Assembly (NCBI GenBank): GCA_964503265.1
Contig: CAZCYO010000003.1
Coordinates: forward strand, 23,740 to 87,739
Length of the DNA: 64,000 bases
Source: an uncultured Gammaproteobacteria bacterium
GTDB lineage: Bacteria; Patescibacteriota; Microgenomatia; Levybacterales; UBA12049
Reading direction: 5' to 3'
Below the pieces are notes generated by a model. It saw nothing but the letters and a program-made list of their open reading frames with translations, was not told where the DNA came from and did not search any database. Of the stretch, positions 3,565 through 48,725 are shown piece after piece (the first letter of the stretch is position 1; the number at the start of each line of letters is the position of its first letter). A program made the position numbers and the translations under genes.

Positions 3565-4239
3565 TTAGTTAGTTATATTAGTTAACTGATCTTGAATAGA
3601 ATCAATTTTATTTTGGTCAGCATCTGTTGTAATGTATTTCATTCCGATAGTGTTATAGATAGGCCAGCGTTCGCCAAGTTCTTTTAGGAAATTGACGAGG
3701 TCGGCTTTCGTTTGGACGGAATCTAAATGATCGAGGACGAATTGGGAAGAAGCTTCTGAATCTTCAACCTCTATCTCTCCTTTATCGAGAGCTTCCATCA
3801 TCGCATCAGCTAAGTCTTTATAGAGACTTTCTCTATCTTCCGAAGGTATCTCTCCTAGAACTGAAGCTGGGGCAGGGGAAGTGGTTGCCTGTTCAGTTGG
3901 AGCTGTCGTCACTGCAGGTTCAGGGGCTGGAGAGGTGGAAACGGGGTCGGAAACAGGAGATGGTTGCATAGGAGATGGTATATCTGTCTGGACTGGAGGA
4001 GCGAATGTGTCAGACACAGCAGGTGTCATCGGGTCTGGGATAGCTGGGATGACACTTGGAGCAGGTGGGGTGACTGGATCAGGAGACGTCTCAGGGATCG
4101 TCGGCATAGGAGATGGAACAGTTGGAGTAGGAGTAGACCATGATGATGTCGGAACGACAGGAGTGTCTGTCTGAGGTACAGGTGGAGTAGGTGTGATTGA
4201 CGAATCAACAGAAACATCTGGAGCAGCATTAGAATCCAT
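3565..4239 (-). CDS. Pro/Thr/Ser-rich low-complexity protein with small C-terminal globular domain; unknown function
   Basis: 224-aa ORF 2 nt upstream of the large coiled-coil gene, so likely co-transcribed. The first ~130 aa are PT(S)-rich linker-like sequence. Confidence 0.45.
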   Translation of the reverse strand: MDSNAAPDVSVDSSITPTPPVPQTDTPVVPTSSWSTPTPTVPSPMPTIPETSPDPVTPPAPSVIPAIPDPMTPAVSDTFAPPVQTDIPSPMQPSPVSDPVSTSPAPEPAVTTAPTEQATTSPAPASVLGEIPSEDRESLYKDLADAMMEALDKGEIEVEDSEASSQFVLDHLDSVQTKADLVNFLKELGERWPIYNTIGMKYITTDADQNKIDSIQDQLTNITN

Positions 4240-4927: not shown

Positions 4928-5014
4928 AGGAAGGATCGCATAGTGGTCTAGTGCGCACGCTTGGAAAGCGTGTGTCGCCGCAAGGTGACCGGGGGTTCGA
5001 ATCCCCCTCCTTCC
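4928..5014 (+). tRNA. tRNA-Ser (anticodon GGA)
   Basis: GGAAGGATCGCATAGTGGTCTAGTGCG-CACGC-TTGGAAA-GCGTG-variable arm-CGGGGG-TTCGAAT-CCCCC-TCCTTCC-G. All arms pair. Confidence 0.8.
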
Positions 5015-5138
5015 GCCGCGTCGGAGCTCAGCTTAACCGTTTCGTCAGCCTGTTGGCTGATTGCACTTTTCAGTTGGTTCCTCCTCTTTAACTTAGCGTA
5101 GCAAAGTTAGAAAGAACAACTAAAACAACAAAAAGACT

Positions 5139-6800: not shown

Positions 6801-7439
6801 TTAATCGAAGAATGATTCACTTTTTTTTAATAATTCTTCATACAATCCAATTAACTTTAACTGTAATTTAAAGTCATAATATCGTAAGCTGCATGTTCCC
6901 AGGTATGTTTTCCTGTGTTTTCCTCCTCTAATTTCTGTAATGGTAGGTTTGATAAATCTCTCGGGGGGAATAGAGAGAAGGTTACTCCAGTACTCTCTAA
7001 TCTCAGAAAAATTATGTATATTGTGAATCTGCAAATGAACTCGTAACTTTGTTTCATTAATGGAAAATGCATTTCTTAACAATGTAAGAAATAACCTAAT
7101 AAGATTGGGATCACTATTCGTAAAAATCATTTTATTGCTTGCCGGATATTTAGTTCCTTCGCACCAGTAGAGTATTGAAAGATAAATTTTTGCTTGTGTA
7201 GAAGATAAAGTAGTAATTGAATCTAGAGAAGATATTTCAGATTGTTTTATTTCAATGCGTTTTCTATCATTACTTAATAATAATGTGTCTTGTCTTGAGG
7301 TTATTGTTTCACCTTTACACCAATTGCGGATAGTAGTTGCTGGAATGCCAGTTATTTTTTGTAATTCGGCAAAAGAATATCCCTTCGCTTTTCGTAGGTC
7401 AACTGCTGAGATAATATCTGCATCTTGGTACTTCCTCAT
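6801..7439 (-). CDS. HTH-domain protein, possible LAGLIDADG-type homing endonuclease (weak call)
   Basis: N-terminal HTH GYSFAELQKITGIPATTIRNWCKG. Downstream YLSILYWCEGTKYP...LIRLFLTLLRNAF fits the LAGLIDADG helix pattern (hydrophobic-x-G-hydrophobic-hydrophobic-D/W-x-E-G). I trimmed the start to MRKYQ so the gene begins immediately after tRNA-Ser(GCT). It sits between the tRNA and its duplicated 3' fragment. Confidence 0.35.
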   Translation of the reverse strand: MRKYQDADIISAVDLRKAKGYSFAELQKITGIPATTIRNWCKGETITSRQDTLLLSNDRKRIEIKQSEISSLDSITTLSSTQAKIYLSILYWCEGTKYPASNKMIFTNSDPNLIRLFLTLLRNAFSINETKLRVHLQIHNIHNFSEIREYWSNLLSIPPERFIKPTITEIRGGKHRKTYLGTCSLRYYDFKLQLKLIGLYEELLKKSESFFD

Positions 7440-8280: not shown

Positions 8281-9726
8281 TTATTTCCCCTGGCATTCTG
8301 TTCTCACAACAGGAATAGTATCTTTGTGTATGGCTTTGGCTAGCTTGCATGTTTTTATGATATTTATTCGTACATCGGTATTTGATGGATTTAATTTTTT
8401 GGCTTTTTGGAACTCTGTGAGTGCTTTTTCTGGCTCAAAATATACGAAGTGAATAAGACCTAATTGATTATGTTTTTCTGCACTTTCGGGAAGAAGATGA
8501 AGCTCTGTCCAGAGGGTAGGAATGTAGTTTTTCCAACTCATAAGTGCTTTAGGTGTTATAAAGGCGTAGTAGCCAAGTAAGCAAACTATACAAGATAGTC
8601 CGAGTACCTGGAAGTACCGGGCAATATATCTTCGGGGAGTACTCTTTACTAGGTGGGAAAACACTGTAGAGATCGTCAGGCTTGCTCCAAAAGATGCGAT
8701 AACTCCGTATCTTCCCCATAGCGGTTGGTTTTGGAATGCAATGCCCACAAGTGGCATGAGGCTTAGGAAAAACCAGATAATTCCAAATCCGATAAATGAT
8801 CGCCTGCGATATAGCCATACGCCAATCACAAAAAACAACAGAATAATTAGACTGTAGACAATCATATCTGGCTGAAATGGCGAAAGAGTAGGGTTTTGTG
8901 ATGTGGCAAGGGTTAGCTTTTTTTGAATAGCTTGAGCTGTGGGTTCTGAGGGGGGAAGGGGGAAAAAAGACGTCGTAATATATGATCCAGCGCCTTCAAT
9001 AATGATTGCGAACTTCTCTAAGATATGACTAAAAAAATCTCCACGATTACTCATATGCACAATTCCTTCGCGAACGATTAAATAGAAAAATGGGATAGAA
9101 ATAATAGAAGCGCCAACTCGTTTCGATATTTTTTCACTATGAAAATGAATATAGATGAAAAAAAGAAGAGGAAGACACAGTGTTATTTCGTACGTAAAGT
9201 ATGCAAGGGAAGAAAAAAAAAGTGTAAGAGAGAGAAATACTTGTGTCTTTTTTTCAAGTAATAGTTGAAAACAAAAAAATGATATAAATGCGAAAAGAAC
9301 ACCCAGTGTGTCAAAGCTAGCAGTGAGATTGGCGACATTATCGACATGCAGAGGCAGAAGTCCGTATATGAGTGCAGTCATGGCTGCTAAGAGATACGTA
9401 TCTGTAAGTTTTTTGGTGATGAAATAAACCAGAATAATACACAGAATATAGATGGATAAGGCTTGCATGTGATAAAGAAATAAATTGGTATGGAAGAGTT
9501 GGTAGCTTATAACGTATGCCAGTGCCCGCACCGGACGATACACGCCCTCATGAGTGTATGGCGCGTCACCCATGAGAAGTTGCGGAATATGGTGAACATC
9601 ATGAATCGCGTCCCACGTAAACAGAAAATCAATTTCATCATACAGAAAGGGAGTGTTAAAAAGAGGGAGGAATATAACGATCACAAAAGCACAAATCGCA
9701 ATAAGCGTGAGGATATCTTTCTTCAT
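8281..9726 (-). CDS. GT-C-type membrane glycosyltransferase-like protein (PMT/TMTC-like) with C-terminal TPR
   Basis: 481 aa, polytopic. N-terminal loop with a DE motif (FLYDEIDFLF) typical of family 39/83-like GT-C enzymes. C-terminal TPR-like LTEFQKAKKLNPSNTDVRINI. One of three paralogous GT-C/TPR proteins in the window. Confidence 0.55.
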   Translation of the reverse strand: MKKDILTLIAICAFVIVIFLPLFNTPFLYDEIDFLFTWDAIHDVHHIPQLLMGDAPYTHEGVYRPVRALAYVISYQLFHTNLFLYHMQALSIYILCIILVYFITKKLTDTYLLAAMTALIYGLLPLHVDNVANLTASFDTLGVLFAFISFFCFQLLLEKKTQVFLSLTLFFSSLAYFTYEITLCLPLLFFIYIHFHSEKISKRVGASIISIPFFYLIVREGIVHMSNRGDFFSHILEKFAIIIEGAGSYITTSFFPLPPSEPTAQAIQKKLTLATSQNPTLSPFQPDMIVYSLIILLFFVIGVWLYRRRSFIGFGIIWFFLSLMPLVGIAFQNQPLWGRYGVIASFGASLTISTVFSHLVKSTPRRYIARYFQVLGLSCIVCLLGYYAFITPKALMSWKNYIPTLWTELHLLPESAEKHNQLGLIHFVYFEPEKALTEFQKAKKLNPSNTDVRINIIKTCKLAKAIHKDTIPVVRTECQGK

Positions 9727-9785
9727 TCTACTATATTACTAGGAAAATGATTGTGGTGAGAAGGGAGACATACTTCGTCATAAAA

Positions 9786-9813
9786 AAGCCGCCGGGGTTA
9801 GCCGGCGGCGGGG
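9786..9813 (-). terminator. GC-rich rho-independent terminator for the minus-strand GC-rich cassette
   Basis: Plus strand AAAAAAGCCGCCGG-GGTTAG-CCGGCGGC. On the minus strand an 8-bp GC stem is followed by TTTTTT. Confidence 0.7.
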
Positions 9814-9845
9814 TAGACACATGTGAGGCTGTGTCTCGTGCCTTT

Positions 9846-10169
9846 TTACGGTTGTGAAGGTGGTGGTTGGACCCATGAGACTCGTACGATTTCGTCGAGT
9901 GGGAACTCGCTCGTGTACGAGACGAAGGGAGACAACCGACCTTCTAGAGACGAGATGACGAGTAATCCTGTTTCTGCTTCAATGACTTTTCCGACGTGGA
10001 TCACGTCGTCTTCGAGATTGAAGTAGAGAGCGATCGCTCCTGGAGCTGGTGTTTCCAGTTCTTCAAGTTCGCCACGTAAGAATAACCCCATGACGTGGTT
10101 ATAGTAGTATGTGGATCCGAGAGCGTAGGAAGCAGCGTCTTTATCTGCTGATGCAGATCCGTCAGTCAT
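9846..10169 (-). CDS. hypothetical protein (GC-rich cassette A, gene 3)
   Basis: 107-aa ORF. Local GC is clearly higher than the ~40% background. Confidence 0.4.
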   Translation of the reverse strand: MTDGSASADKDAASYALGSTYYYNHVMGLFLRGELEELETPAPGAIALYFNLEDDVIHVGKVIEAETGLLVISSLEGRLSPFVSYTSEFPLDEIVRVSWVQPPPSQP

Positions 10170-10294
10170 CTTGAACCTCCTGGTGTTATGAGCGCTTCGG
10201 GAACGGGATATCGCGAAGATCAGCGACCTCGCCCTTTAGGGCAGACTGCGTGATGCGGCGAACCACACTGTAGTGGTAGCCCTTCATCTGCTCT

Positions 10295-10549
10295 TCAACG
10301 ACTCCCACGCATTGTCAGGCGATACTGCCTGGAGGGCGCAGGGTTTGAAGACGTGGGGTAGTCATTGAATGGGAGTTCTTGTTGCCATGACTGCAGGTAG
10401 CCTTTCCGAACCAAACTCTCAAGCTCACTAGTCGCAAAGCGGCCGCGAATCTTCCAGTTAATGGTTCCTTCGGTGAAAGTGCCGCTATTGAAAGCAGCGT
10501 CTTGACATGCTCGGAGGACTTCTTGTTCGCCTGGTGTAAGATCATCCAT
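10295..10549 (-). CDS. hypothetical small protein with LuxR/sigma-70-region-4-like N-terminal helix-turn-helix (cassette A, gene 2)
   Basis: 84 aa. LTPGEQEVLRACQDAA resembles the LTxRExEVL HTH start of LuxR/FixJ and sigma region 4. GC-rich. Confidence 0.35.
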   Translation of the reverse strand: MDDLTPGEQEVLRACQDAAFNSGTFTEGTINWKIRGRFATSELESLVRKGYLQSWQQELPFNDYPTSSNPAPSRQYRLTMRGSR

Positions 10550-10565
10550 CGACGCCTCCTTCGTA

Positions 10566-10910
10566 CTATTGTTCGAGCAGCTTCACGGTGGAGTCTGCCC
10601 GAGCCATGATTTCTGCGTGGAAGGCTTTCGCCTCCTGCGCCGCATCGTGTTCGAGAAGAGCATCCAGCCAGAGGGGGACTGTAGCGTAGAGAATCTCACT
10701 CACTGAGAAGGGCATACGAAGTGTGGTTACATGATCGTCAATTGATTGCATCATGTGCAAGACGAAGCCGCCCACAATTCGTCCCTGTCCGGCGAGCTCT
10801 GCGAAGCGTGGGTAGAGATCATCTACCAGTTTCGTAGCAGAGATGACGCTGGTTAAGCGCCTGATCATCTCCTCCCGATCCGGAAGGATTACACGAATGT
10901 CACTTGGCAT
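10566..10910 (-). CDS. hypothetical protein (cassette A, gene 1)
   Basis: I chose the start at MPSDIRV because a GAAGGAGA Shine-Dalgarno lies 7 nt upstream. GC-rich. Confidence 0.4.
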   Translation of the reverse strand: MPSDIRVILPDREEMIRRLTSVISATKLVDDLYPRFAELAGQGRIVGGFVLHMMQSIDDHVTTLRMPFSVSEILYATVPLWLDALLEHDAAQEAKAFHAEIMARADSTVKLLEQ

Positions 10911-10957
10911 AGGGTATTTCTCCTTCTCTGATTCAGGCTTATGCGTATCCAAATGGA

Positions 10958-11046
10958 TAGCATCTTAGGTAAGAATGAATTCCTGCCCAAAATGCTATCC
11001 ACAAAGGATTTAATTATTTCCGCAAACTGTAAAAGTGCAAAAAAAA
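10958..11046 (-). promoter_or_regulatory. upstream control module of cassette A: 10-bp inverted repeat TGGATAGCAT...ATGCTATCCA plus conserved TTTGCGGAAAT and TTTTGCAC-TTTACA motifs
   Basis: Same architecture and near-identical motifs as the region upstream of cassette B (13533-13625). Confidence 0.5.
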
Positions 11047-11154
11047 GATCTATAGTACAACAAATACGCATATGTATTGAAGTACTCTAGTTATAGCGGG
11101 ATTATAGCATTATGAAAGACGCACGGTCAAACTATAGGGCTAAAGATTGCATGT

Positions 11155-11391
11155 TTATATGAAATGTTTATTTCTGAAGGCGAAGCCTGAGTTAGTTTTT
11201 AAGTAATCTTCAAATAAAACTGCTTTTTCTTTGGACTGAAAAGCAGCATAGAAAATTAAAATGAAAGGTCGTAAATTTTTTGTTGAAGCTACAGAACCTT
11301 CTGTATGAGCTTTTATGCGGTTCTTGAGATTAGAAGAATATCCATGATAAAACGTTTTATCTTTAAGTTGGAGTATGTATACATAATACAT
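11155..11391 (-). CDS. GIY-YIG nuclease family small protein
   Basis: 78 aa. MYYVYILQLKDKTFYHGYSSNLKNRIKAH is a canonical GIY-YIG module (YVYIL..YhG.T.NL..R...H). Confidence 0.8.
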   Translation of the reverse strand: MYYVYILQLKDKTFYHGYSSNLKNRIKAHTEGSVASTKNLRPFILIFYAAFQSKEKAVLFEDYLKTNSGFAFRNKHFI

Positions 11392-11399
11392 ATTCTCAG

Positions 11400-11442
11400 T
11401 GTATCAAAATGAAAAATGCCCCACTTCGTCCGCCAGTTGGCG
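11400..11442 (-). terminator. rho-independent terminator downstream of ssrA (nested hairpin plus U-run)
   Basis: Minus strand: GCCCC-UAACGUA-GUCCGCC-AACU-GGCGGAC-GAAGU-GGGGC-AUUUUUCAUUUU. Confidence 0.6.
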
Positions 11443-11540
11443 GACTACGTTAGGGGCACCCTTCGCTACTATTTTCAAGCCATTTTTTTAGGAGTGTGGC
11501 CTGCCACTCCGTAGCTCATCCCGTTAGGGTATGAGCGAAG

Positions 11541-11970
11541 GGTGGAGATGTCCGGGAGCGATCCGGAGTCCGAAATATATTTTTAAAAACATCTACAAGC
11601 GTAGTCACAATTTATAGTGTCGTCTGAAACGTGTTCGAGTGACGGAATTTTTCAGACCTAGATCTCTTAATACCACGAAAGTCGAAATCAGTCTCTCTCG
11701 CTGTTTTCCTAACTGTTTTTAGGTCGTTACTTCCACGTTAGGGAGGAAGTAGGACTGTTCAAAGAGCTCGGGTCTTAAGCAGCAAGTGCGAAAGATTGAG
11801 GTGCGAATGCACCGTCAAAAGCGGATTGAACTCCGTCAGCTGCCTTGAGGGCGAATTGACGGACGCTGCGCATTGAGTCAGCATTTATTTTTTGATAATG
11901 TTTTACGACAACTTATCAATGTCGGCTTGCAGTTTTTAAAGAACGTAAATCGTCGAATCAAATCATCCCC
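11541..11970 (-). ncRNA. ssrA: tmRNA (SsrA), ~430 nt
   Basis: The 5' end, GGGGATGATTTGATTCGACGATTTACG, is near-identical to the canonical tmRNA 5' end GGGGCUGAUUCUGGAUUCGACGGGAUUUGCG. The 3' end reads GGAC-TCCGG-ATCGCTC-CCGGA-CATCTCC-A-CC, and the acceptor GGGGATG/CATCTCC includes the G3:U70 alanine identity pair. An internal reading frame ends ...GCA CTT GCT GCT TAA (…FALAA*), the typical tag terminus. The gene lies immediately downstream of smpB. Confidence 0.8.
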
Positions 11971-12146
11971 AAGCAAAAATCAACTATGATTGTTATTTGC
12001 GAACATTGATTTTTCAAATTCGAATATCGAAATCCTAAACTCGAAACTCCACTTCGTTCAAGAACTTCGCGGAGCAGGCTTTTTTGCTTGCCACTCCGTA
12101 GCTTTAGCGAAGGGTGGTTTCGTATTTCGTGCTTTGGTATTCGGAT

Positions 12147-12590
12147 TTAATATTTTCCCTCAGTATATGCATCTTCTATCTCGCGTGCGATATCTCTATT
12201 TTTTATGGCTTCTTTCTTTTCAAAGGCTTTTTTCGATTTCGCGATACCGAGTTCTGCTTTAATGAGGAGACGTGTAGTATACACCGATATAGGCACGATT
12301 GTCAAGTTTGACCCGTCCATTTTAGCCTTGAGAGAGAGAATTTGTTTCTTATGAAGTAGCAGTTTTCGAGTCCGTTTCGGGTCGTAATTTTCCTGTCTGG
12401 AATTAACATACGGAAAGATACTCGCATTCATTAAATACGCTTCATTTCCACGAATTCTCGCAAAGCTTCCCGTCAAATCTGCATGACCATTACGGATAGA
12501 TTTTACCTCAGCCCCTGTGAGCATAATCCCAGCCTCAAAGGTTTCAAGGATTTGATAGTCGTAGGTTGCCTTTTTATTCACAATTTTCAT
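12147..12590 (-). CDS. smpB: SsrA-binding protein SmpB
   Basis: KKATYDYQILETFEAGIMLTGAEVKSIRNG...LLLHKKQI matches the SmpB signature. Confidence 0.9.
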   Translation of the reverse strand: MKIVNKKATYDYQILETFEAGIMLTGAEVKSIRNGHADLTGSFARIRGNEAYLMNASIFPYVNSRQENYDPKRTRKLLLHKKQILSLKAKMDGSNLTIVPISVYTTRLLIKAELGIAKSKKAFEKKEAIKNRDIAREIEDAYTEGKY

Positions 12591-12684
12591 GAGAGTATGA
12601 TACCTGAAAAAAGGCTAAGAGCAAAGAGGACAGCTAATGGCATAAGGCTCGCTTCTCTTTATGGCTTATGGGTATACATGAGAA

Positions 12685-12720
12685 GACCCCGCTCCGGCGA
12701 ATGCCGAGGCGGGGTCTAGG
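12685..12720 (-). terminator. GC-rich hairpin at the 3' end of cassette B (weak terminator)
   Basis: GACCCCGCTCCGG-CGAATG-CCGAGGCGGGGTC. There is no clean U-run, so the call is weak. Confidence 0.4.
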
Positions 12721-12751
12721 GTGCGCGTTACTTGCGGAAAGTATTTAGCGA

Positions 12752-12910
12752 CTTAGGAAGAAACAAACGAGCCCTGCGAGCTCGAATGGGATGGATAACA
12801 CTACGAATGTTGATCCTCCAACGAGGAGGAAAAGAAACGAGAAGAGAATGCCTGCACAGACGCACATTGCGCCGGCAGCGGTCATGCTAGATTTCCAGGC
12901 CTTCATCGAT
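12752..12910 (-). CDS. possible small membrane protein (53 aa), cassette B
   Basis: GC-rich short ORF MKAWKSSMTAAGAMCVCAGILFSFLF... This is my own translation of the minus strand. It is below the 60-aa cutoff of the ORF track. Confidence 0.25.
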
Positions 12911-12981
12911 GATCTCCTTGCCGCTTGAAAGCGGTGTTATCTATGATCTGTCGAGGATCGTCAGATGTACTCCTTCTCCCG

Positions 12982-13494
12982 CTATGCGGGCCAGTTAATG
13001 AAGTCATCGGTCCAGAGAGGGATTTTGTGTGTGAAGACCCTCCAGAAGTCCTCTTTGGTAGAATTCTCCATTTCCCTTTCCCTAGGCGTTCGAAGATCGA
13101 TCCGCCTGATCAACATAGCGTTGCTACCCCAATTGATGAACTCGCCCTGCTTTGCGATATCGTCCAGCGCGTTTAGCGCATTATGACGGGTGATCTCAAA
13201 GAAGGTTCGGCCCTCGGTTGTGCCTGAGGATGTAGCCCAAGCAATCATGGTAGCAGGGTTGTGTAGTCGCAACATACCGTAGATCGAGATGTTGTTTACA
13301 GCTTCGCACTCCTGTGCAGTGATATATGATGTTGCCACGAGCAGAGATTTCCGCTCACGGTGGGCCGCGATCACGCTGCTGGGAAACGAAATGTATCGTG
13401 CTTCTTGGCGCATGTAGCGCTGATAGGTGAGGATATCGAATCCTCGATTCACCAGGTCTGCGATGAACTCATTCCAAGGAGTTGTCGACATCTT
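12982..13494 (-). CDS. hypothetical protein (cassette B main gene)
   Basis: I chose the start at MSTTPWNEF because a GGAAGGAG Shine-Dalgarno lies upstream. GC-rich. No recognisable motif. Confidence 0.4.
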   Translation of the reverse strand, partial: KMSTTPWNEFIADLVNRGFDILTYQRYMRQEARYISFPSSVIAAHRERKSLLVATSYITAQECEAVNNISIYGMLRLHNPATMIAWATSSGTTEGRTFFEITRHNALNALDDIAKQGEFINWGSNAMLIRRIDLRTPREREMENSTKEDFWRVFTHKIPLWTDDFINWPA

Positions 13495-13532
13495 TGTGCT
13501 CCTTCCGTGATATAGGGGTTTAATAGACGACT

Positions 13533-13625
13533 TTCTAGCTTGAGTGATTATCAAGCCACAAAGTCGTCTATTAAACAATTAATTTCCGCAAATCCCGATT
13601 ACATCGGGAAAAATTGTAAACGTGC
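13533..13625 (-). promoter_or_regulatory. upstream control module of cassette B: 16-bp perfect inverted repeat TTTAATAGACGACTTT...AAAGTCGTCTATTAAA plus TTTGCGGAAAT and TTTTGCAC-G-TTTACA motifs
   Basis: Perfect 16-bp inverted-repeat arms separated by ~27 nt (which contains a smaller inverted repeat). The flanking motifs are shared with cassette A. Confidence 0.5.
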
Positions 13626-13739
13626 AAAATACAAATGTGGCTTGGGGTAGGCAGTAAATGAGCCTATCCAGGCTGCAAATGTAGAAGGGAATTGTAGCAA
13701 AAAAGAAGAGAAAAGTCAAATGCTATAGGACTATTTAAA

Positions 13740-13935
13740 TGATGGTTTTTTTACCAGATGATCTGGTGCATCTGGTGGCTTCTGGGTGTTTTGAGGCTAA
13801 ACTGGGCTTTTTCACCAGTTCATCTGGGCATCTGGATTGATCTGGTGATTTAGCCTCGGGATCTGGTGGAGTTGTGGTCATAAAAAGGGTACCAGATGGG
13901 GTTTCTGGGTGTGATTTGGTGACTGGCTATGCATG
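13740..13935. repeat. cluster of short CATCTGGTG / CACCAGATG iteron-like repeats in a ~450-bp non-coding stretch
   Basis: accagatgatctggtgcatctggtgg...caccagttcatctgggcatctggattgatctggtgatt...gggatctggtggag...accagatggggtttctgggtgtgatttggtgactgg. At least 8 copies in both orientations, including the palindrome CACCAGAT-GATCTGGTG. Confidence 0.6.
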
Positions 13936-14052
13936 TATGCGAGGATTCTTGGGAGGCTTGTCTGCTGAATCTTTGCGAAGAGGTGGAGTGGTAAAGGAGT
14001 AATCGTATAGATTCCCGATCAGGTCGGGAATGACAGTAAGTAAAGCATGAAA

Positions 14053-15966
14053 CTAGAGGGCGATTTGATAGATTTTTTTATTGATGAGGAGGTAGATTTT
14101 TTTGTCTTTCTCAGAGACGATGAAGTCTGAGGCGGATTTGATTTGGTCGGCGGTGTAGGAGGAAATATATGCGCCGGTTTTATCGAGTTTTACAACTCTG
14201 CTATTTCCATTATCGAGGACATACAGATTTTCTGTGTCAGTTGAGGTAAAGAGTTTTTTGGGATTTGAGAGGTTCGATGGGAGACCTGAGAGCGTAAATG
14301 TTTCAGATTCGCCTTTTGAGAATTTGCGAATGGTTCCGTCACTGTCGAGTAAGTACACTGAACTGTCGATACTCATGGAGATTGTGCTTTTAAGGGACGG
14401 GACAGTGTCTTTAAAATAGGTGCTTTTGCCGTAGCCGTCACTGCCAGCGACGAATTTAAGGATATTTACTCCTTTATCTAAGACATAGATGTTACTCAGA
14501 TATACAGATATCGCTTGCGGAGAAGTCCAATCAGAATCATTCGTGACGAGTATTTTCGCTTTATCATTTCCTTTATCGATTTGGCTAATTGTTTTATTCG
14601 TTATCGTATAGACATACGATGTATCTTCACTAACAGCAAGGGCATTTTCAGATAGTTCTTTTTGGAGAGCTGGTGCACTATCACTGCCTGCTTCTGTAAT
14701 CTCAACTTTCTTGGTTGCTTCAGTAGGTGCGATTCCTTGTGAATCAATTTTTTCAGCTAATTCAGAATATTTCTTTTCATCATCAGTGCCAGATTTTACA
14801 TATTGTTTGGCTTTATCAAGTGTTTCTTTGGCTTTCTTAAAGTCATCCATGGCGAGTGATTTATTGAGACTTACTAGGCCTTCTCCCTCAGCATATATTT
14901 TAGATGCTTCATCATACAGTTCCACAAAAGCAGAATGCGCTTTTGTGTCGCCTTGGTTTTGTTTGGTAGTGACGATCGTGAAGATGAGAATTGCTGCAAT
15001 GCCAATCGCAATAGTTAAGAAAAAGAGATTTTTTTTGGGGAAGGAGAAAGAAAAAGAGGGAAGAGCGAAGCGACTTTTTTTAATGACTGCCTCCGCATCA
15101 TCATCACGCTCAATAATGACGGGTTCTTGGATTCGATCTGCAAGTGTTTCTCCTTCTTCTTCCTCGACTGGAAGTGGTGTGCTCTTAAGGGGTTCTGATA
15201 CTGGAAGTACTTCTTTCTCTTCCTCTAGTGCGTCATCAGAGGCCACCTCAGGAGAGTCCTGGTTAAGTGATGGGTGAATCTCGTGCGTTTGTTTTTCTGG
15301 AAGTTGTTTTTTTTCTTTTGGTAGTTCTTCTGTCTCATCCTCAGGCTCTGCAGGTTTTGGTGCCACACTTTCTGAGCTGGCGAAGGTGATAATCGTAGCA
15401 GCGGGTGTACCGTCTTCACTTTTGTGAAGCGTAGGAGTAAGAAGTTCTGCCATATCACTTGGAAGTTGGAGCGTGAAGCTTTCAGTTAAGAGAGTTTTTG
15501 GCACAGATGTGATAAACGATGCTGTGGCAAGAAGAATAATATCACCACTTTGAAGATATCCTGAAACAGTTGCCAGCTCTGGCGAGTCTTTTCCTTCTTT
15601 GAACAGTGTTGCGGTTGTTCCACCACGAGTTAGAAGTGCTTGACCACCACCAAAGGCATAGAGATAAATAATGGAATCTTTGAGAAAAGCTATACATCCG
15701 GATAATGTGACAGTTTCTGGAACTGATTCGAGACTTTTTTTAATGGCTTGTTCAATCGTACTGAGTGTTTTTTCCTCAAGGGTAAAGAATTCTGACTGAA
15801 GGACGTTGGTTATTTGTTTTCCTTGTGCGCTTAAGGTTTCTTCAGATTCCTCAGTTCTTTTTAACGAAAATGCAGCAAAGAGATTCCCAGCATTATATGA
15901 AAGCGACCATGTAGTCGGTGTTGGAGTTGCGGCAAGCTTGGCAAACGTGATGTGTGTCGTGGGCAT
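14053..15966 (-). CDS. single-pass membrane protein with cytoplasmic N-terminal domain, acidic linker, TM helix and extracellular beta-propeller-like repeats; unknown function
   Basis: 637 aa. TM segment LFFLTIAIGIAAILIFTIVTT. C-terminal repeated YVLD/YLLDSDG/YVLDNGNSRVVKLD motifs suggest propeller blades. Confidence 0.4.
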   Translation of the reverse strand: MPTTHITFAKLAATPTPTTWSLSYNAGNLFAAFSLKRTEESEETLSAQGKQITNVLQSEFFTLEEKTLSTIEQAIKKSLESVPETVTLSGCIAFLKDSIIYLYAFGGGQALLTRGGTTATLFKEGKDSPELATVSGYLQSGDIILLATASFITSVPKTLLTESFTLQLPSDMAELLTPTLHKSEDGTPAATIITFASSESVAPKPAEPEDETEELPKEKKQLPEKQTHEIHPSLNQDSPEVASDDALEEEKEVLPVSEPLKSTPLPVEEEEGETLADRIQEPVIIERDDDAEAVIKKSRFALPSFSFSFPKKNLFFLTIAIGIAAILIFTIVTTKQNQGDTKAHSAFVELYDEASKIYAEGEGLVSLNKSLAMDDFKKAKETLDKAKQYVKSGTDDEKKYSELAEKIDSQGIAPTEATKKVEITEAGSDSAPALQKELSENALAVSEDTSYVYTITNKTISQIDKGNDKAKILVTNDSDWTSPQAISVYLSNIYVLDKGVNILKFVAGSDGYGKSTYFKDTVPSLKSTISMSIDSSVYLLDSDGTIRKFSKGESETFTLSGLPSNLSNPKKLFTSTDTENLYVLDNGNSRVVKLDKTGAYISSYTADQIKSASDFIVSEKDKKIYLLINKKIYQIAL

Positions 15967-32624: not shown

Positions 32625-32800
32625 GTGTTGGAAAAGTATAGGAAATCACGATGAAATTTCGTGACTGTGCCGCAACTGTGAAAGTCAGAAAACTATACTT
32701 AAGTCGTTTCATTCCCGAGCAGGAGTATTCAAGTATAGTAATCTTGTAATCCTTCTTAGGAATTGTTTTTTCTAAAGAAGGATTTTTTGTAAGAATTCTC
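32625..32800 (+). promoter_or_regulatory. cobalamin riboswitch-like leader (compact variant) with intrinsic terminator, upstream of pduO-type gene
   Basis: GGAAATCACGATGAAATTTCGTGACTGTGCCGCAACTGTGAAAGTCAGAAAAC contains the CCGCaACUGU core and an AGUCAG B12-box-like element. Followed by the terminator TCCTTCTTAG...CTAAAGAAGGATTTTTT (32757-32797). Confidence 0.5.
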
Positions 32801-37901: not shown

Positions 37902-37975
37902 GGGTGTGTAGCTCAGTGGTAGAGCGCGACTCTTATAAAGTCGATGTCCTTGGTCCGATCCCAAGCACACCCACC
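37902..37975 (+). tRNA. tRNA-Ile (anticodon UAU by hand folding)
   Basis: GGGTGTG-TA-GCTC-AGTGGTA-GAGC-G-CGACT-CTTATAA-AGTCG-ATGTC-CTTGG-TCCGATC-CCAAG-CACACCC-A-CC. All stems are Watson-Crick. Positions 34-36 read TAT. Confidence 0.65.
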
Positions 37976-47514: not shown

Positions 47515-47548
47515 GTAGGTTTCGGGATCGAACTAAATCGATCCCGAA
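47515..47548. other. perfect 14-bp stem hairpin GGTTTCGGGATCGA-ACTAAA-TCGATCCCGAAACC
   Basis: Lies between the 3' end of the 47573-47983 gene and the comM start. There is no U-run, so it is not a classical terminator. Confidence 0.5.
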
Positions 47549-47572
47549 ACCAGGGAATGTGTCTTGCGAATG

Positions 47573-47983
47573 TCAGCTTAGGACGACCTCCTTTACTAAG
47601 GGGAAAATAATGTCTTTAATCCATTCTAGTGGCTCGCACTCATCATCTCCCGCACAAGTGTGAAGAACCCCATTAAATATGGGATCTTCCCAGCTAGCCG
47701 GAAACGGACGAAGTTCTGATCGTAGAGCATCGAAGACGACTTGGACTCCGATTCGAATGCCGATTAAGATGAAATTCTCGACAGGTGTCTGAATAGATCC
47801 CATAGCGTCAACCCAAGAGTCAGAGTCTTCTCCACGTCCTGTGATGAGCTGTTCGATCTGCCACCCCTCCATCACCATATGGAGAAGTAGGTCCGCATGG
47901 ATTTCTTGGTACCTCTTGATTTCCTTGATGATGATCGCTCGTTCTTCCTCGTTTAGGAGAGGAAGAATTGTTGAGATGGCCAT
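47573..47983 (-). CDS. hypothetical protein
   Basis: I chose the start at MAISTILP. Moderately GC-enriched. No motif. Confidence 0.35.
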   Translation of the reverse strand: MAISTILPLLNEEERAIIIKEIKRYQEIHADLLLHMVMEGWQIEQLITGRGEDSDSWVDAMGSIQTPVENFILIGIRIGVQVVFDALRSELRPFPASWEDPIFNGVLHTCAGDDECEPLEWIKDIIFPLVKEVVLS

Positions 47984-48008
47984 GGATTTATTCCTCTCTG
48001 TCTGAAGC

Positions 48009-48368
48009 TTACTTTTCCGACTGGACTTCAGCCGGAATGTCACTGAGATGGATCGATGTCGCACCAGACTCTTGGGCATCTCGGTAAGTAAGAAGAGACA
48101 TAGATGCCACTCCTTCTTTATTTGAGATAGCCCTGTAGACTACGAGGTCGCCTTTTTTGAGTGTGATACAGAAGTCTTTGACCATAAAACCGTCGCGTGG
48201 GAAAGTTAGATAAAAGTTTAGTACGAAGTCGTTGAGATTAACTTCCCATGTGAGCCTATACTCCTGGCCATGGAAGCTAATGGGTATCGATGTTTTAGGT
48301 GGTTCGTTGCCAAATTCCTCTATTTTCATCCCAACCTCCATGATTTTCATGTGATCCTCCAGAAACAA
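48009..48368 (-). CDS. hypothetical protein
   Basis: 119-aa ORF upstream of and co-oriented with the 47573-47983 gene. Confidence 0.35.
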   Translation of the reverse strand: MFLEDHMKIMEVGMKIEEFGNEPPKTSIPISFHGQEYRLTWEVNLNDFVLNFYLTFPRDGFMVKDFCITLKKGDLVVYRAISNKEGVASMSLLTYRDAQESGATSIHLSDIPAEVQSEK

Positions 48369-48401
48369 TCTCTTTAACCATCCGTAACCACTACGGGGTC
48401 A

Positions 48402-48460
48402 GTAGAGATCGACGAGAAAGAAGGGGAGTGGAACTTCCTTCTCGTCGATCTCTACAGTAT
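48402..48460. other. long near-perfect inverted repeat (at least 17-bp arms) GTAGAGATCGACGAGAA...TTCTCGTCGATCTCTAC
   Basis: Read directly from the sequence. Located ~35 nt upstream of the start of the 48009-48368 minus-strand gene. Confidence 0.6.
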
Positions 48461-48725
48461 TCGCAAGTTATTAACGTGCAAGACACAAAAACTGTGAATG
48501 AAAAAGTTTTCAGAAACGCATATGTTTTTGAAGCTATTTCAATGGAAGTATGATAGCAGATCAATCGAACAAGGTCAAACTATAAGACTTGATAGAGGAG
48601 GGCAGGGGAGAATGGATAGTGTATGACTGTCTCAGATGTATCTATGTAAAGAAAAAAAATAAAATAAAGTATGTAATCTACATATGTATTGTCTATAGAA
48701 AGAAACGTAACTAGGGGAGAGTGGG

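Follow-up and report, generated by a model that had tools for sequence, protein, structure and literature searches.

Candidate mobile expression cassettes with putatively paired mRNA ends in a patescibacterial genome

Three small gene cassettes, named A, B and C, lie on the minus strand of a 64,000-nucleotide stretch of DNA (the window; contig CAZCYO010000003.1, positions 23,740 to 87,739) from an uncultured member of the Patescibacteriota. With moderate confidence they are read here as a family of small (~1-1.4 kb), mobile and self-contained expression units resembling phage morons, whose mRNAs would be closed by a helix between their two ends, the bracket helix. An earlier note had described A and B as horizontally acquired accessory modules of atypical composition, and as belonging to a family with a common regulatory architecture. 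Both proposals are supported. The family has a third member in the window, C, and cassettes in related loci (identified by L numbers) share the same anatomy. The note had overlooked cassette C, the promoters upstream of A and B, and the copies of their upstream boxes that recur as reverse complements at the 3′ ends. The common plan consists of a TATAG-marked promoter of sigma-70 type, a leader of ~190-200 nt, one to four closely packed, GC-rich open reading frames (ORFs) each led by a Shine-Dalgarno (SD) sequence, and a terminal hairpin.

9846-10910, minus strand: cassette A, a GC outlier with an ordered upstream module
12745-13491, minus strand: cassette B, a GC outlier with an upstream module common with A
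47518-48586, minus strand: cassette C, of the same anatomy as A and B

The GC content of the window is 40.4%, and its 38 long ORFs, taken as background, have a mean GC of 0.406 (sd 0.031) and a mean GC at third codon positions (GC3) of 0.314 (sd 0.068). The six ORFs of A and B reach a GC of 0.50-0.57 (z +3.0 to +5.3) and a GC3 of 0.48-0.71, and the two of C a GC of 0.44-0.47 (z +1.1 to +2.1) and a GC3 of 0.48-0.49; across the cargo of all three cassettes the GC3 z-score is +2.5 to +5.8. The GC profile that the earlier note had proposed as a check on its claim of GC-rich cassettes thus leaves the ORFs of A and B as compositional outliers. A further GC-rich stretch (3701-4200) was rejected as a cassette, being the Pro/Thr-rich part of a native gene.

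Each cassette is preceded by a consensus-level match to a sigma-70 promoter and followed by its own terminal hairpin.

11101-11138, minus strand: promoter of A, with a CCTATAG element, TTGACC-18-TATAAT (11130-11101) and a TG-extended -10
13691-13729, minus strand: promoter of B, with a CCTATAGCA element, TTGACT-17-TACAAT (13719-13691) and a TG-extended -10
48550-48586, minus strand: promoter of C, with a CTTATAG element and TTGACC-17-TATCAT

In A and B the CCTATAG element abuts the -35 hexamer and both promoters are near-consensus. Within the 64 kb the pattern TATAG-N0-4-TTGAC has three occurrences and no more, one ahead of each cassette, against an expected count of 0.52, and a count of three was reached in none of 100 shuffles. 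The B promoter is ~74% identical in the syntenic locus L015, and its hexamers can be made out in L016 as well. Downstream of these promoters, the shared boxes lie where the earlier note had placed them, together with the inverted repeats and SD sequences: TTTTGCAC(T/G)TTTACA at 11042-11028 (A) and 13629-13615 (B), with no further match at up to two mismatches, TTTGCGGAAAT at 11026-11016 (A) and 13592-13582 (B), and the SD sequences AGAAGGAG and GGAAGGAG ahead of the first ORFs of A and B. That note had taken the boxes themselves for the promoter. This does not hold, as strong sigma-70 matches lie upstream of them, the distance from -10 to 5′ box being 60-63 nt in A and B and up to 68 nt when C is included. 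Moreover, a 21-nt insertion that includes a 15-nt hairpin (CCCGATGTAATCGGG), unmentioned in the note, separates the two boxes in B, a change that a -35/-10 pair would not tolerate. Because better promoters lie upstream and the box geometry is split in B, the boxes and the supposed operators probably sit within a transcribed leader of ~190-200 nt.

The promoter type extends beyond the cassettes. All 15 matches to GTCCTATAGCA-N0-2-TTGAC in IMG/VR fall inside coding sequence and are attributed to chance, and metagenomes yielded ~27 distinct matches with a -10-like hexamer at the right spacing, ~15 of them promoter-like and three of these with a box leader. Since it mostly lacks the box leader elsewhere, the TATAG promoter is a general type and not a marker of cassettes across the phylum. 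The fuller form GTCCTATAGCA-(N0-2)-TTGAC-17-TAnnnT turns up across many metagenome contigs that differ in GC content (for example L078 and L084).

A further feature of the predicted transcripts is the complementarity of their ends. Just past the last stop codon stands the reverse complement of the 5′ box (TTGCAC-N-TTTACA / TTGCGGAAA). Wherever both ends of a cassette are readable, the -10 precedes the 5′ box, and the 3′ box stands at or beyond the last stop and ahead of the terminal hairpin. The parts in the window are as follows.

11016-11042, minus strand: 5′ box of A, TTTTGCACTTTTACA, G, TTTGCGGAAAT
10954-11001, minus strand: leader hairpin of A, 23-nt arms, 83% complementary, fold z -5.0
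9839-9863, minus strand: 3′ box of A, overlapping the C-terminus of A4; TGCCTTTTTACGGTTGTGAAGGTGG on the plus strand
9788-9809, minus strand: intrinsic terminator of A, 8 G-C pairs and a T run, rated terminator-like by the scan
13582-13629, minus strand: 5′ box of B, TTTTGCACGTTTACA (13629-13615), hairpin CCCGATGTAATCGGG (13608-13594) and TTTGCGGAAAT (13592-13582), conserved in L015
13518-13576, minus strand: leader hairpin of B, 26-nt arms, 92% complementary, RNA fold -36.9 kcal/mol, z -8.5
12913-12940, minus strand: hairpin and SD between B1 and B2 (28 nt, CACCGCTTTCAAGCGGCAAGGAGA)
12721-12746, minus strand: 3′ box of B, reverse complement of the 5′ box; GTGCGCGTTACTTGCGGAAAGTATTT on the plus strand
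12684-12717, minus strand: GC-rich terminal hairpin of B, 15-nt arms, 87% complementary, presumed terminator
48459-48481, minus strand: 5′ box of C, TTGCACGTTAATAACTTGCGAAT
48402-48455, minus strand: leader hairpin of C, 22-bp arms; leader segment -49.4 (sense) and -42.3 kcal/mol (antisense)
47571-47559, minus strand: 3′ box of C, ATTCGCAAGACAC, followed by a 14-bp hairpin (47551-47518)

The hairpins at 9788-9809 and 12684-12717 agree with the earlier statement that each of A and B ends in a GC-rich hairpin; the one in B was left out by the terminator scan because its T run is weak. Cassette C came to light through a box profile run with nhmmer over 1.1 Mb of window and related loci (match 48485-48457), which returned no other new member. 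In B and C an exact 9-nt complement of the cassette's own, differing second box directly follows the stop codon: the predicted B mRNA carries UUUCCGCAA..GCGCAC just past the B2 stop and ahead of the terminal hairpin, and the ATTCGCAAG of C is the exact complement of its own distinct 5′ CTTGCGAAT. The promoter-leader region of C also carries the motif ACATATGCGT, which is present in A leaders too. Related cassettes, in which the elements differ from type to type, have complementary ends in the same manner.

L015, slot B (B′): 5′ TTTGCGGAAAT, 3′ ATTTCCGCAAA
L003: 5′ TTGCAC..TTGCGGA, 3′ TCCGCAA..GTGCAA
L145: 5′ and 3′ elements of the same type as L003
L022: 5′ and 3′ elements of the same type as L003
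L158: 5′ TTGCAG, 3′ CTGCAA
L054: 5′ TTGGTTG, 3′ CAACCAA
L016: 5′ CTAGTTGAAT, 3′ ATTCAGCTAG
L015, slot A (A′): 5′ TTGTGAAGG, 3′ CTTCACGA
L160: 5′ CGGAAT, 3′ GTTCCG

Several tests bear on this pairing. RNAduplex energies of leaders against their own 3′ regions reach z-scores of -2.4 to -5.9 in 8 of 10 cassettes. An alignment of 11 cassettes has 81% paired cells, as opposed to 61% after shuffling, and none of 500 shuffles reaches 81%; changes occur on both sides in 10 of the 11 pairs, and slid registers pair at 28-44%. Mismatches within the bracket are sense-compatible in 13 cases and antisense-compatible in 9. Ungapped and gapped scans for inverted boxes over 2.5 kb are individually non-significant, so the weight falls solely on the position, duplex and covariation tests. 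Cassette A departs from the pattern: its 3′ box is of the TTGTGAAGG type found in the A′ leader of L015 and fits its own 5′ box (TTGCGGAAA type) poorly (duplex z -0.9), and the A′ 5′ box of L015 pairs with the 3′ box of A at -22.6 kcal/mol. Judged by these box types, A looks chimeric. A limited search of literature and libraries found no description of cassettes with this architecture.

Between the 5′ box and the SD of every cassette lies a hairpin of 20-27 bp, unrelated in sequence from one cassette to another, with fold z-scores of -4.0 to -8.7. The inverted repeats reported earlier for A and B are among them and are longer than had been stated (23-nt arms in A, 26-nt in B). In 8 of 10 leader hairpins folding is more favourable on the sense than on the antisense strand, by 2.7-21 kcal/mol (in A, -35.3 versus -26.7 kcal/mol), owing to G-U pairs, which number 42 versus 22. 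Hairpins that differ from cassette to cassette and are more stable on the sense strand point to RNA and not to DNA operators. The outer arms of the B hairpin are kept in L015, where the inner stem has been swapped for another sequence that still pairs; since the cargo there is unrelated, this too argues against cassette-specific DNA operators and makes that part of the earlier proposal unlikely. A scan of 9600-14100 with Rfam 15 brought only tmRNA to its gathering score, and the leaders match no family; a sub-threshold match of the B hairpin to a microRNA family was taken as spurious. A small hairpin, CCCGAT-N3-ATCGGG, recurs in or beside cassettes of unrelated contigs, where it occupies the leader, the interior of the long hairpin or the 3′ region. 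It is found in the window at 13594-13608 (with a variant, CCCGACCTGATCGGG, at 14014-14028), in L015 at 7316-7330 and ~7370-7386, and in L160 at ~2040-2056.

Comparison with relatives indicates turnover of cargo within a conserved frame. In the syntenic locus L015 (SmpB 86% identical) promoter and leader are kept in both slots, as are the inter-ORF hairpin with its SD, the 3′ box and the terminator of B, and A4 with its terminator, and all other cassette ORFs differ from those of the window. The inter-ORF hairpin and SD (12913-12940) are 89% identical at the same junction of L015 although both flanking ORFs differ, which suggests that single ORFs are exchanged and not only whole cassettes. In a strain with SmpB 92% identical (L016-L021) the B promoter is followed by a different leader and a decayed ORF in two pieces, and there is no cassette after ssrA. 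The slot-B cargo of L016 (4556-4878) lies in two overlapping frames of 61 and 64 aa that the source pipeline left uncalled, and the unit looks like a decaying cassette.

Other loci carry traces of insertion. In L158 a 1010-bp cassette lies between exact copies of a 16-nt repeat that overlaps the 3′ end of a tRNA-Glu gene, in L003 a cassette lies between exact copies of a 30-nt repeat 1402 bp apart, in L127 a cassette begins directly after tRNA-Asn, and in L022 two cassettes with identical terminators stand in tandem after ssrA. Adjacency to a tRNA or tmRNA gene holds for A (downstream of ssrA) and for L015, L022, L127, L158 and L161, and fails for B (upstream of smpB) and C. Within the window the neighbours of the cassettes are smpB, tmRNA, a comF-like gene, SpoIID and a ComM-like gene, and not a prophage. 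A combined box pattern gave 13 matches in GTDB genomes, of which L003 and L013 are true relatives and the rest chance-like, and none in IMG/VR; blastn of cassette B against a phage collection and of cassette A against a plasmid collection gave no match.

The cargo of the window comprises eight small proteins.

10910-10566, minus strand: A1, 114 aa
10549-10295, minus strand: A2, 84 aa
10287-10186, minus strand: A3, ~33 aa
10169-9846, minus strand: A4, 107 aa, with a single homologue (75%) in L015
12982-13491, minus strand: B1, 169 aa, of a small uncharacterised family with the motif AAHR..LLL.ATS
12745-12906, minus strand: B2, 53 aa, a membrane peptide as predicted from its hydrophobic sequence
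48350-48009, minus strand: C1, 113 aa
47983-47573, minus strand: C2, 136 aa

Pfam assigns no accepted family to any of them, the sole match of B2 being a weak one below cut-off to the transmembrane-segment family Insulin_TMD (expect value, E, 0.008), and PHROGs and NCBIfam gave no match for A1-A4, B1 and B2. The earlier note had suggested defence modules and had named defence-system predictors as a check; PADLOC, run at E up to 1, found no defence-system protein among the cargo of A and B (C1 and C2 were scanned against Pfam only). The same note had seen a LuxR/sigma-region-4-like helix-turn-helix (HTH) in A2. There is no such match in Pfam at E up to 1 and no HTH among PDB sequence matches, and a single-sequence AlphaFold2 model (predicted local distance difference test, pLDDT, 73.6) has the order alpha-beta-alpha-beta-beta, its best Foldseek matches being weak, S8-like and without an HTH.

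B1 appeared ORFan-like in a word-indexed search, and a full HMMER search recovered ~20 relatives at 27-37% identity with conserved motifs. Five of these were looked up. Four stand in like cassettes, of which the one in L022 follows ssrA and the one in L158 a tRNA, or adjoin smpB-ssrA (L161); the fifth, L160, is a cassette of the same type on a short contig with no visible tRNA or tmRNA. The AlphaFold2 model of B1 (pLDDT 87.9) matches the fold of two uncharacterised phage proteins in BFVD (E ~1e-7, TM-score 0.70-0.73). In L068/L127 the cargo contains a Tad4 domain (E 4e-30); Tad4 is a phage protein that inhibits type I Thoeris by blocking its NAD-processing site (bioRxiv 10.64898/2026.01.28.702374). 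The cargoes of L015 and L054 have a DUF2103-like N-terminus in common, and small hydrophobic products other than B2 include 45- and 71-aa ORFs of L013 and the cargo of L145.

The mechanism that these features suggest acts on the mRNA. An RNA-level role of bracket and hairpin is favoured because of their position in the predicted transcript, the covariation and the strand asymmetry of folding. The 5′ box (TTGCAC..TTGCGGAAA or a cassette-specific variant) would pair with its reverse complement past the last stop, closing the coding part of the transcript in a bracket helix, with the 20-27-bp hairpin following directly after that box. For double-stranded RNA of this length the likeliest mechanism, and the one preferred here, would be processing or stabilisation of the RNase III type, which would free expression from the site of insertion; a translational lock is a possible alternative role. 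The cassettes may owe their mobility to site-specific integration by an enzyme supplied in trans, with subsequent recombination between the conserved flanking sequences, and their cargo would be related to conflict, as counter-defence, immunity or toxin-like proteins.

Several observations weigh against this interpretation. Promoters, transcript ends and RNA pairing are all deduced from sequence. In the window itself B gives a weak RNAduplex signal (z -1.7) and A none, and the covariation score is inflated because the register of the alignment was picked by hand from the same sequences. The TATAG promoter type also stands before housekeeping genes elsewhere, such as infA in L078. With regard to mobility, no direct repeats were found flanking A, B or C in the window, and no integrase was found inside any cassette or inspected locus (among window ORFs the recombinase screen covered the cassettes), nor among the called genes of L014 and L015 within up to 10 kb on each side where the contig allows. 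As to cargo, no function could be assigned to the eight window proteins, a tblastn search of a phage collection with B1, A4 and A1 returned nothing, and the B1 family has no relatives in IMG/VR. The interpretation also accounts neither for the source of the GC-rich cargo nor for its composition.

Other explanations of the boxes and hairpins fit the evidence less well. The leader could be a nut-like antitermination site in which box1 (TTGCACNTTTACA) resembles boxA and the hairpin boxB, bound factors driving read-through of the GC-rich cargo. The leaders do place a conserved, single-stranded box ahead of a hairpin whose sequence varies, 60-70 nt past the promoter of acquired operons, and box1 agrees by eye at 10 of 13 positions with the E. 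coli rrn boxA (TGCTCTTTAACAA). Hairpins of 20-27 bp far exceed boxB, however, the 3′ complement is left unexplained, and the operons are short (~1 kb); there is no rRNA gene in the window or the related loci from which the boxA of this lineage could be compared. An antitermination site is considered unlikely.

Ranked next, and also improbable, is an explanation in which the inverted boxes are DNA sites, either as targets of an invertase acting in trans, which would turn the cargo around with respect to a fixed promoter (phase variation), or as terminal inverted repeats of a non-autonomous transposon with passengers. Inverted copies of a ~20-25-nt module do flank the cargo in many cassettes, the boxes vary between cassette types and match within a cassette as transposon ends do, and A and B share a box type in one genome as would be expected of a global invertase. 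Recombinase sites are counted against by the spacing of the half-boxes, which is 9 nt in the 5′ copy (30 nt in B) versus 5-7 nt in the 3′ copies, and by the hairpin insertion of B, which has no mirror image. Moreover, promoter and terminator, both conserved, are situated beyond the repeats and still accompany the cassette to other genomic sites, the breakpoints between relatives in B do not coincide with the boxes, six identical assemblies of one strain show a single orientation, and no recombinase was found in the inspected loci.

The complementary ends that bracket the ORFs, together with the small hydrophobic proteins of several cassettes (B2, the 45- and 71-aa products of L013, the L145 cargo), recall type I toxin-antitoxin systems such as hok/sok, in which a 5′-3′ fold-back would keep the transcript for a small membrane toxin inactive until it is processed. 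This is judged very unlikely, as the majority of the cargo is soluble and of 100-260 aa, no antisense promoter or RNA is evident (none was noted near B2 in the promoter scan), and the bracket leaves the SD unsequestered in most cassettes. Least probable of all is the earlier model of a box promoter with palindromic DNA operators for a cassette-encoded repressor, in an autoregulated addiction or defence module: the long, near-perfect palindromes between shared boxes and SD, and a weak promoter-like TTTGCA-17-AATAAT that overlaps the boxes in A, speak for it, and it is opposed by the much better promoters upstream, the broken box geometry of B, the B palindrome arms kept in L015 beside unrelated cargo, the lack of a detectable DNA-binding domain in the cargo proteins, the asymmetry of sense and antisense folding and the absence of a PADLOC match. 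Identity of the palindromes with integron attC sites was rejected on their core sequences and on their position 5′ of the ORFs.

On the minus strand the genes around A and B follow one another as a 637-aa gene (ending at 14053), B, smpB, tmRNA, a GIY-YIG gene, A and the terminator at 9809-9788. The modules thus adjoin ssrA and smpB, as the earlier note had it, and in relatives the same two slots carry other cargo.

12590-12147, minus strand: smpB (Pfam SmpB, 1.7e-48)
11970-11540, minus strand: tmRNA (ssrA), 105.8 bits with Rfam, missed by ARAGORN
11391-11155, minus strand: GIY-YIG gene, 78 aa

The tag frame of the tmRNA, read by eye, has ~35 codons (ADSMRSVRQFALKAADGVQSAFDGAFAPQSFALAA), which is unusually long, with an internal FALKAA / FALAA repeat, and the long extension is shared with L015 and L016. 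The GIY-YIG gene and the imperfect palindromic repeats (GCCACTCCGTAGCT ... AGCGAAGGGTGG) that stand to either side of the tmRNA (11155-11545, 12086-12116) are missing in L015 and L016; they look like an insertion separate from the cassettes. In L003 and L161 a GIY-YIG gene is likewise accompanied by palindromic repeats, of other sequence. Between the 637-aa gene and the B promoter, ~300 nt (13740-14052) hold no convincing ORF and are rich in CCAGATG/CATCTGG-type repeats. This stretch is absent in L015 and partial in L016, where it starts with a 3′-box-like TTCCCGCAAGTAAACCG, and it may be the leftover of an older cassette. A box-like TTGCACTTTTCAGTTGGTT at 5061-5080, ~45 nt past a tRNA-Ser gene (4929-5017) and with no cargo following, may be an empty or decayed cassette site. 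Elsewhere on the plus strand of the window are an AdoCbl-II (cobalamin) riboswitch (32626-32703, 52.8 bits, above the gathering score) and a predicted tRNA-Ile (37902-37975) with the anticodon TAT, which is uncommon in bacteria.

Little is understood of how Patescibacteria, with their tiny genomes, gain and trade accessory genes. More tentatively than the reading of A, B and C as such, and with some doubt, it is proposed that these cassettes represent a new class of mobile element of the Patescibacteria: units of ~1 kb at the 3′ ends of tRNA, tmRNA and other genes, without an integrase of their own, with a standard promoter, a co-varying bracket and a long hairpin, that carry a quickly swapped arsenal of phage-like counter-defence proteins or effectors. 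Such an arsenal could be directed at phages or at the immune defences of the bacteria that host these epibionts. Hosts actively defend themselves against these epibionts (PMC13622651), which raises the relevance of the cargo. A standard format (TATAG promoter, 5′ box, long hairpin, 3′ complement) would let the accessory pool be enumerated from metagenomes, and the Tad4 domain and the phage-like fold suggest that the cassettes may supply new counter-defence or host-interaction proteins. The bracket with its hairpin, if confirmed, would be an unusual, portable solution for the expression of foreign genes.

Among known systems, phage morons are independent transcription units inserted in phage genomes (PMC3594210). 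The cassettes resemble them in having a promoter and terminator of their own, a GC content unlike that of their neighbours, one or a few accessory genes, and a presence that varies between close relatives. They differ in lying between housekeeping genes of a chromosome (smpB, ssrA, comF-like, comM-like) and not in a prophage, in their conserved leader, 5′/3′ bracket and long hairpin, and in their association with tRNA or tmRNA ends and direct repeats. With integron cassettes they have in common that they are small, mostly ORFan units that form arrays (L022) and turn over at a fixed platform, and that their imperfect palindromes are conserved in structure and not in sequence. In contrast to integron cassettes, each unit has a promoter and its palindrome stands 5′ of the ORFs in a region predicted to be transcribed; attC sites (RYYYAAC ... 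GTTRRRY) lie 3′ of a promoterless ORF, whereas the arms in B open with GTTTAAT and close with ATTAAAC and those in A are TGGATAGCAT ... ATGCTATCCA, and no IntI was found in the inspected loci.

Like tRNA/tmRNA islands and integrase-less, att-flanked elements similar to the cis-mobilizable elements (CIMEs), cassettes of this family sit at tRNA or tmRNA 3′ ends, can be bracketed by exact direct copies of the target's end (L158, L003) and accrete in tandem (L022). They differ from such islands and elements in their size of ~1 kb, in the absence of an internal integrase and in having no detectable repeats around A, B and C. As in hok-type mRNAs and rRNA processing stalks, complementary transcript ends would enclose the functional part; unlike these, the cassettes have a diverse, protein-coding cargo and no evident antisense RNA, and processing of their transcripts is a prediction. 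Finally, anti-defence islands are features of phages and plasmids, whereas the host here is a cellular genome and no cargo of the window matches a known anti-defence family. The likeness to such islands (bioRxiv 10.1101/2025.06.06.658234, 10.64898/2026.01.28.702374) lies in the member with a Tad4 domain, in a small, fast-evolving and mostly unannotated cargo, and in the phage-like fold of B1.

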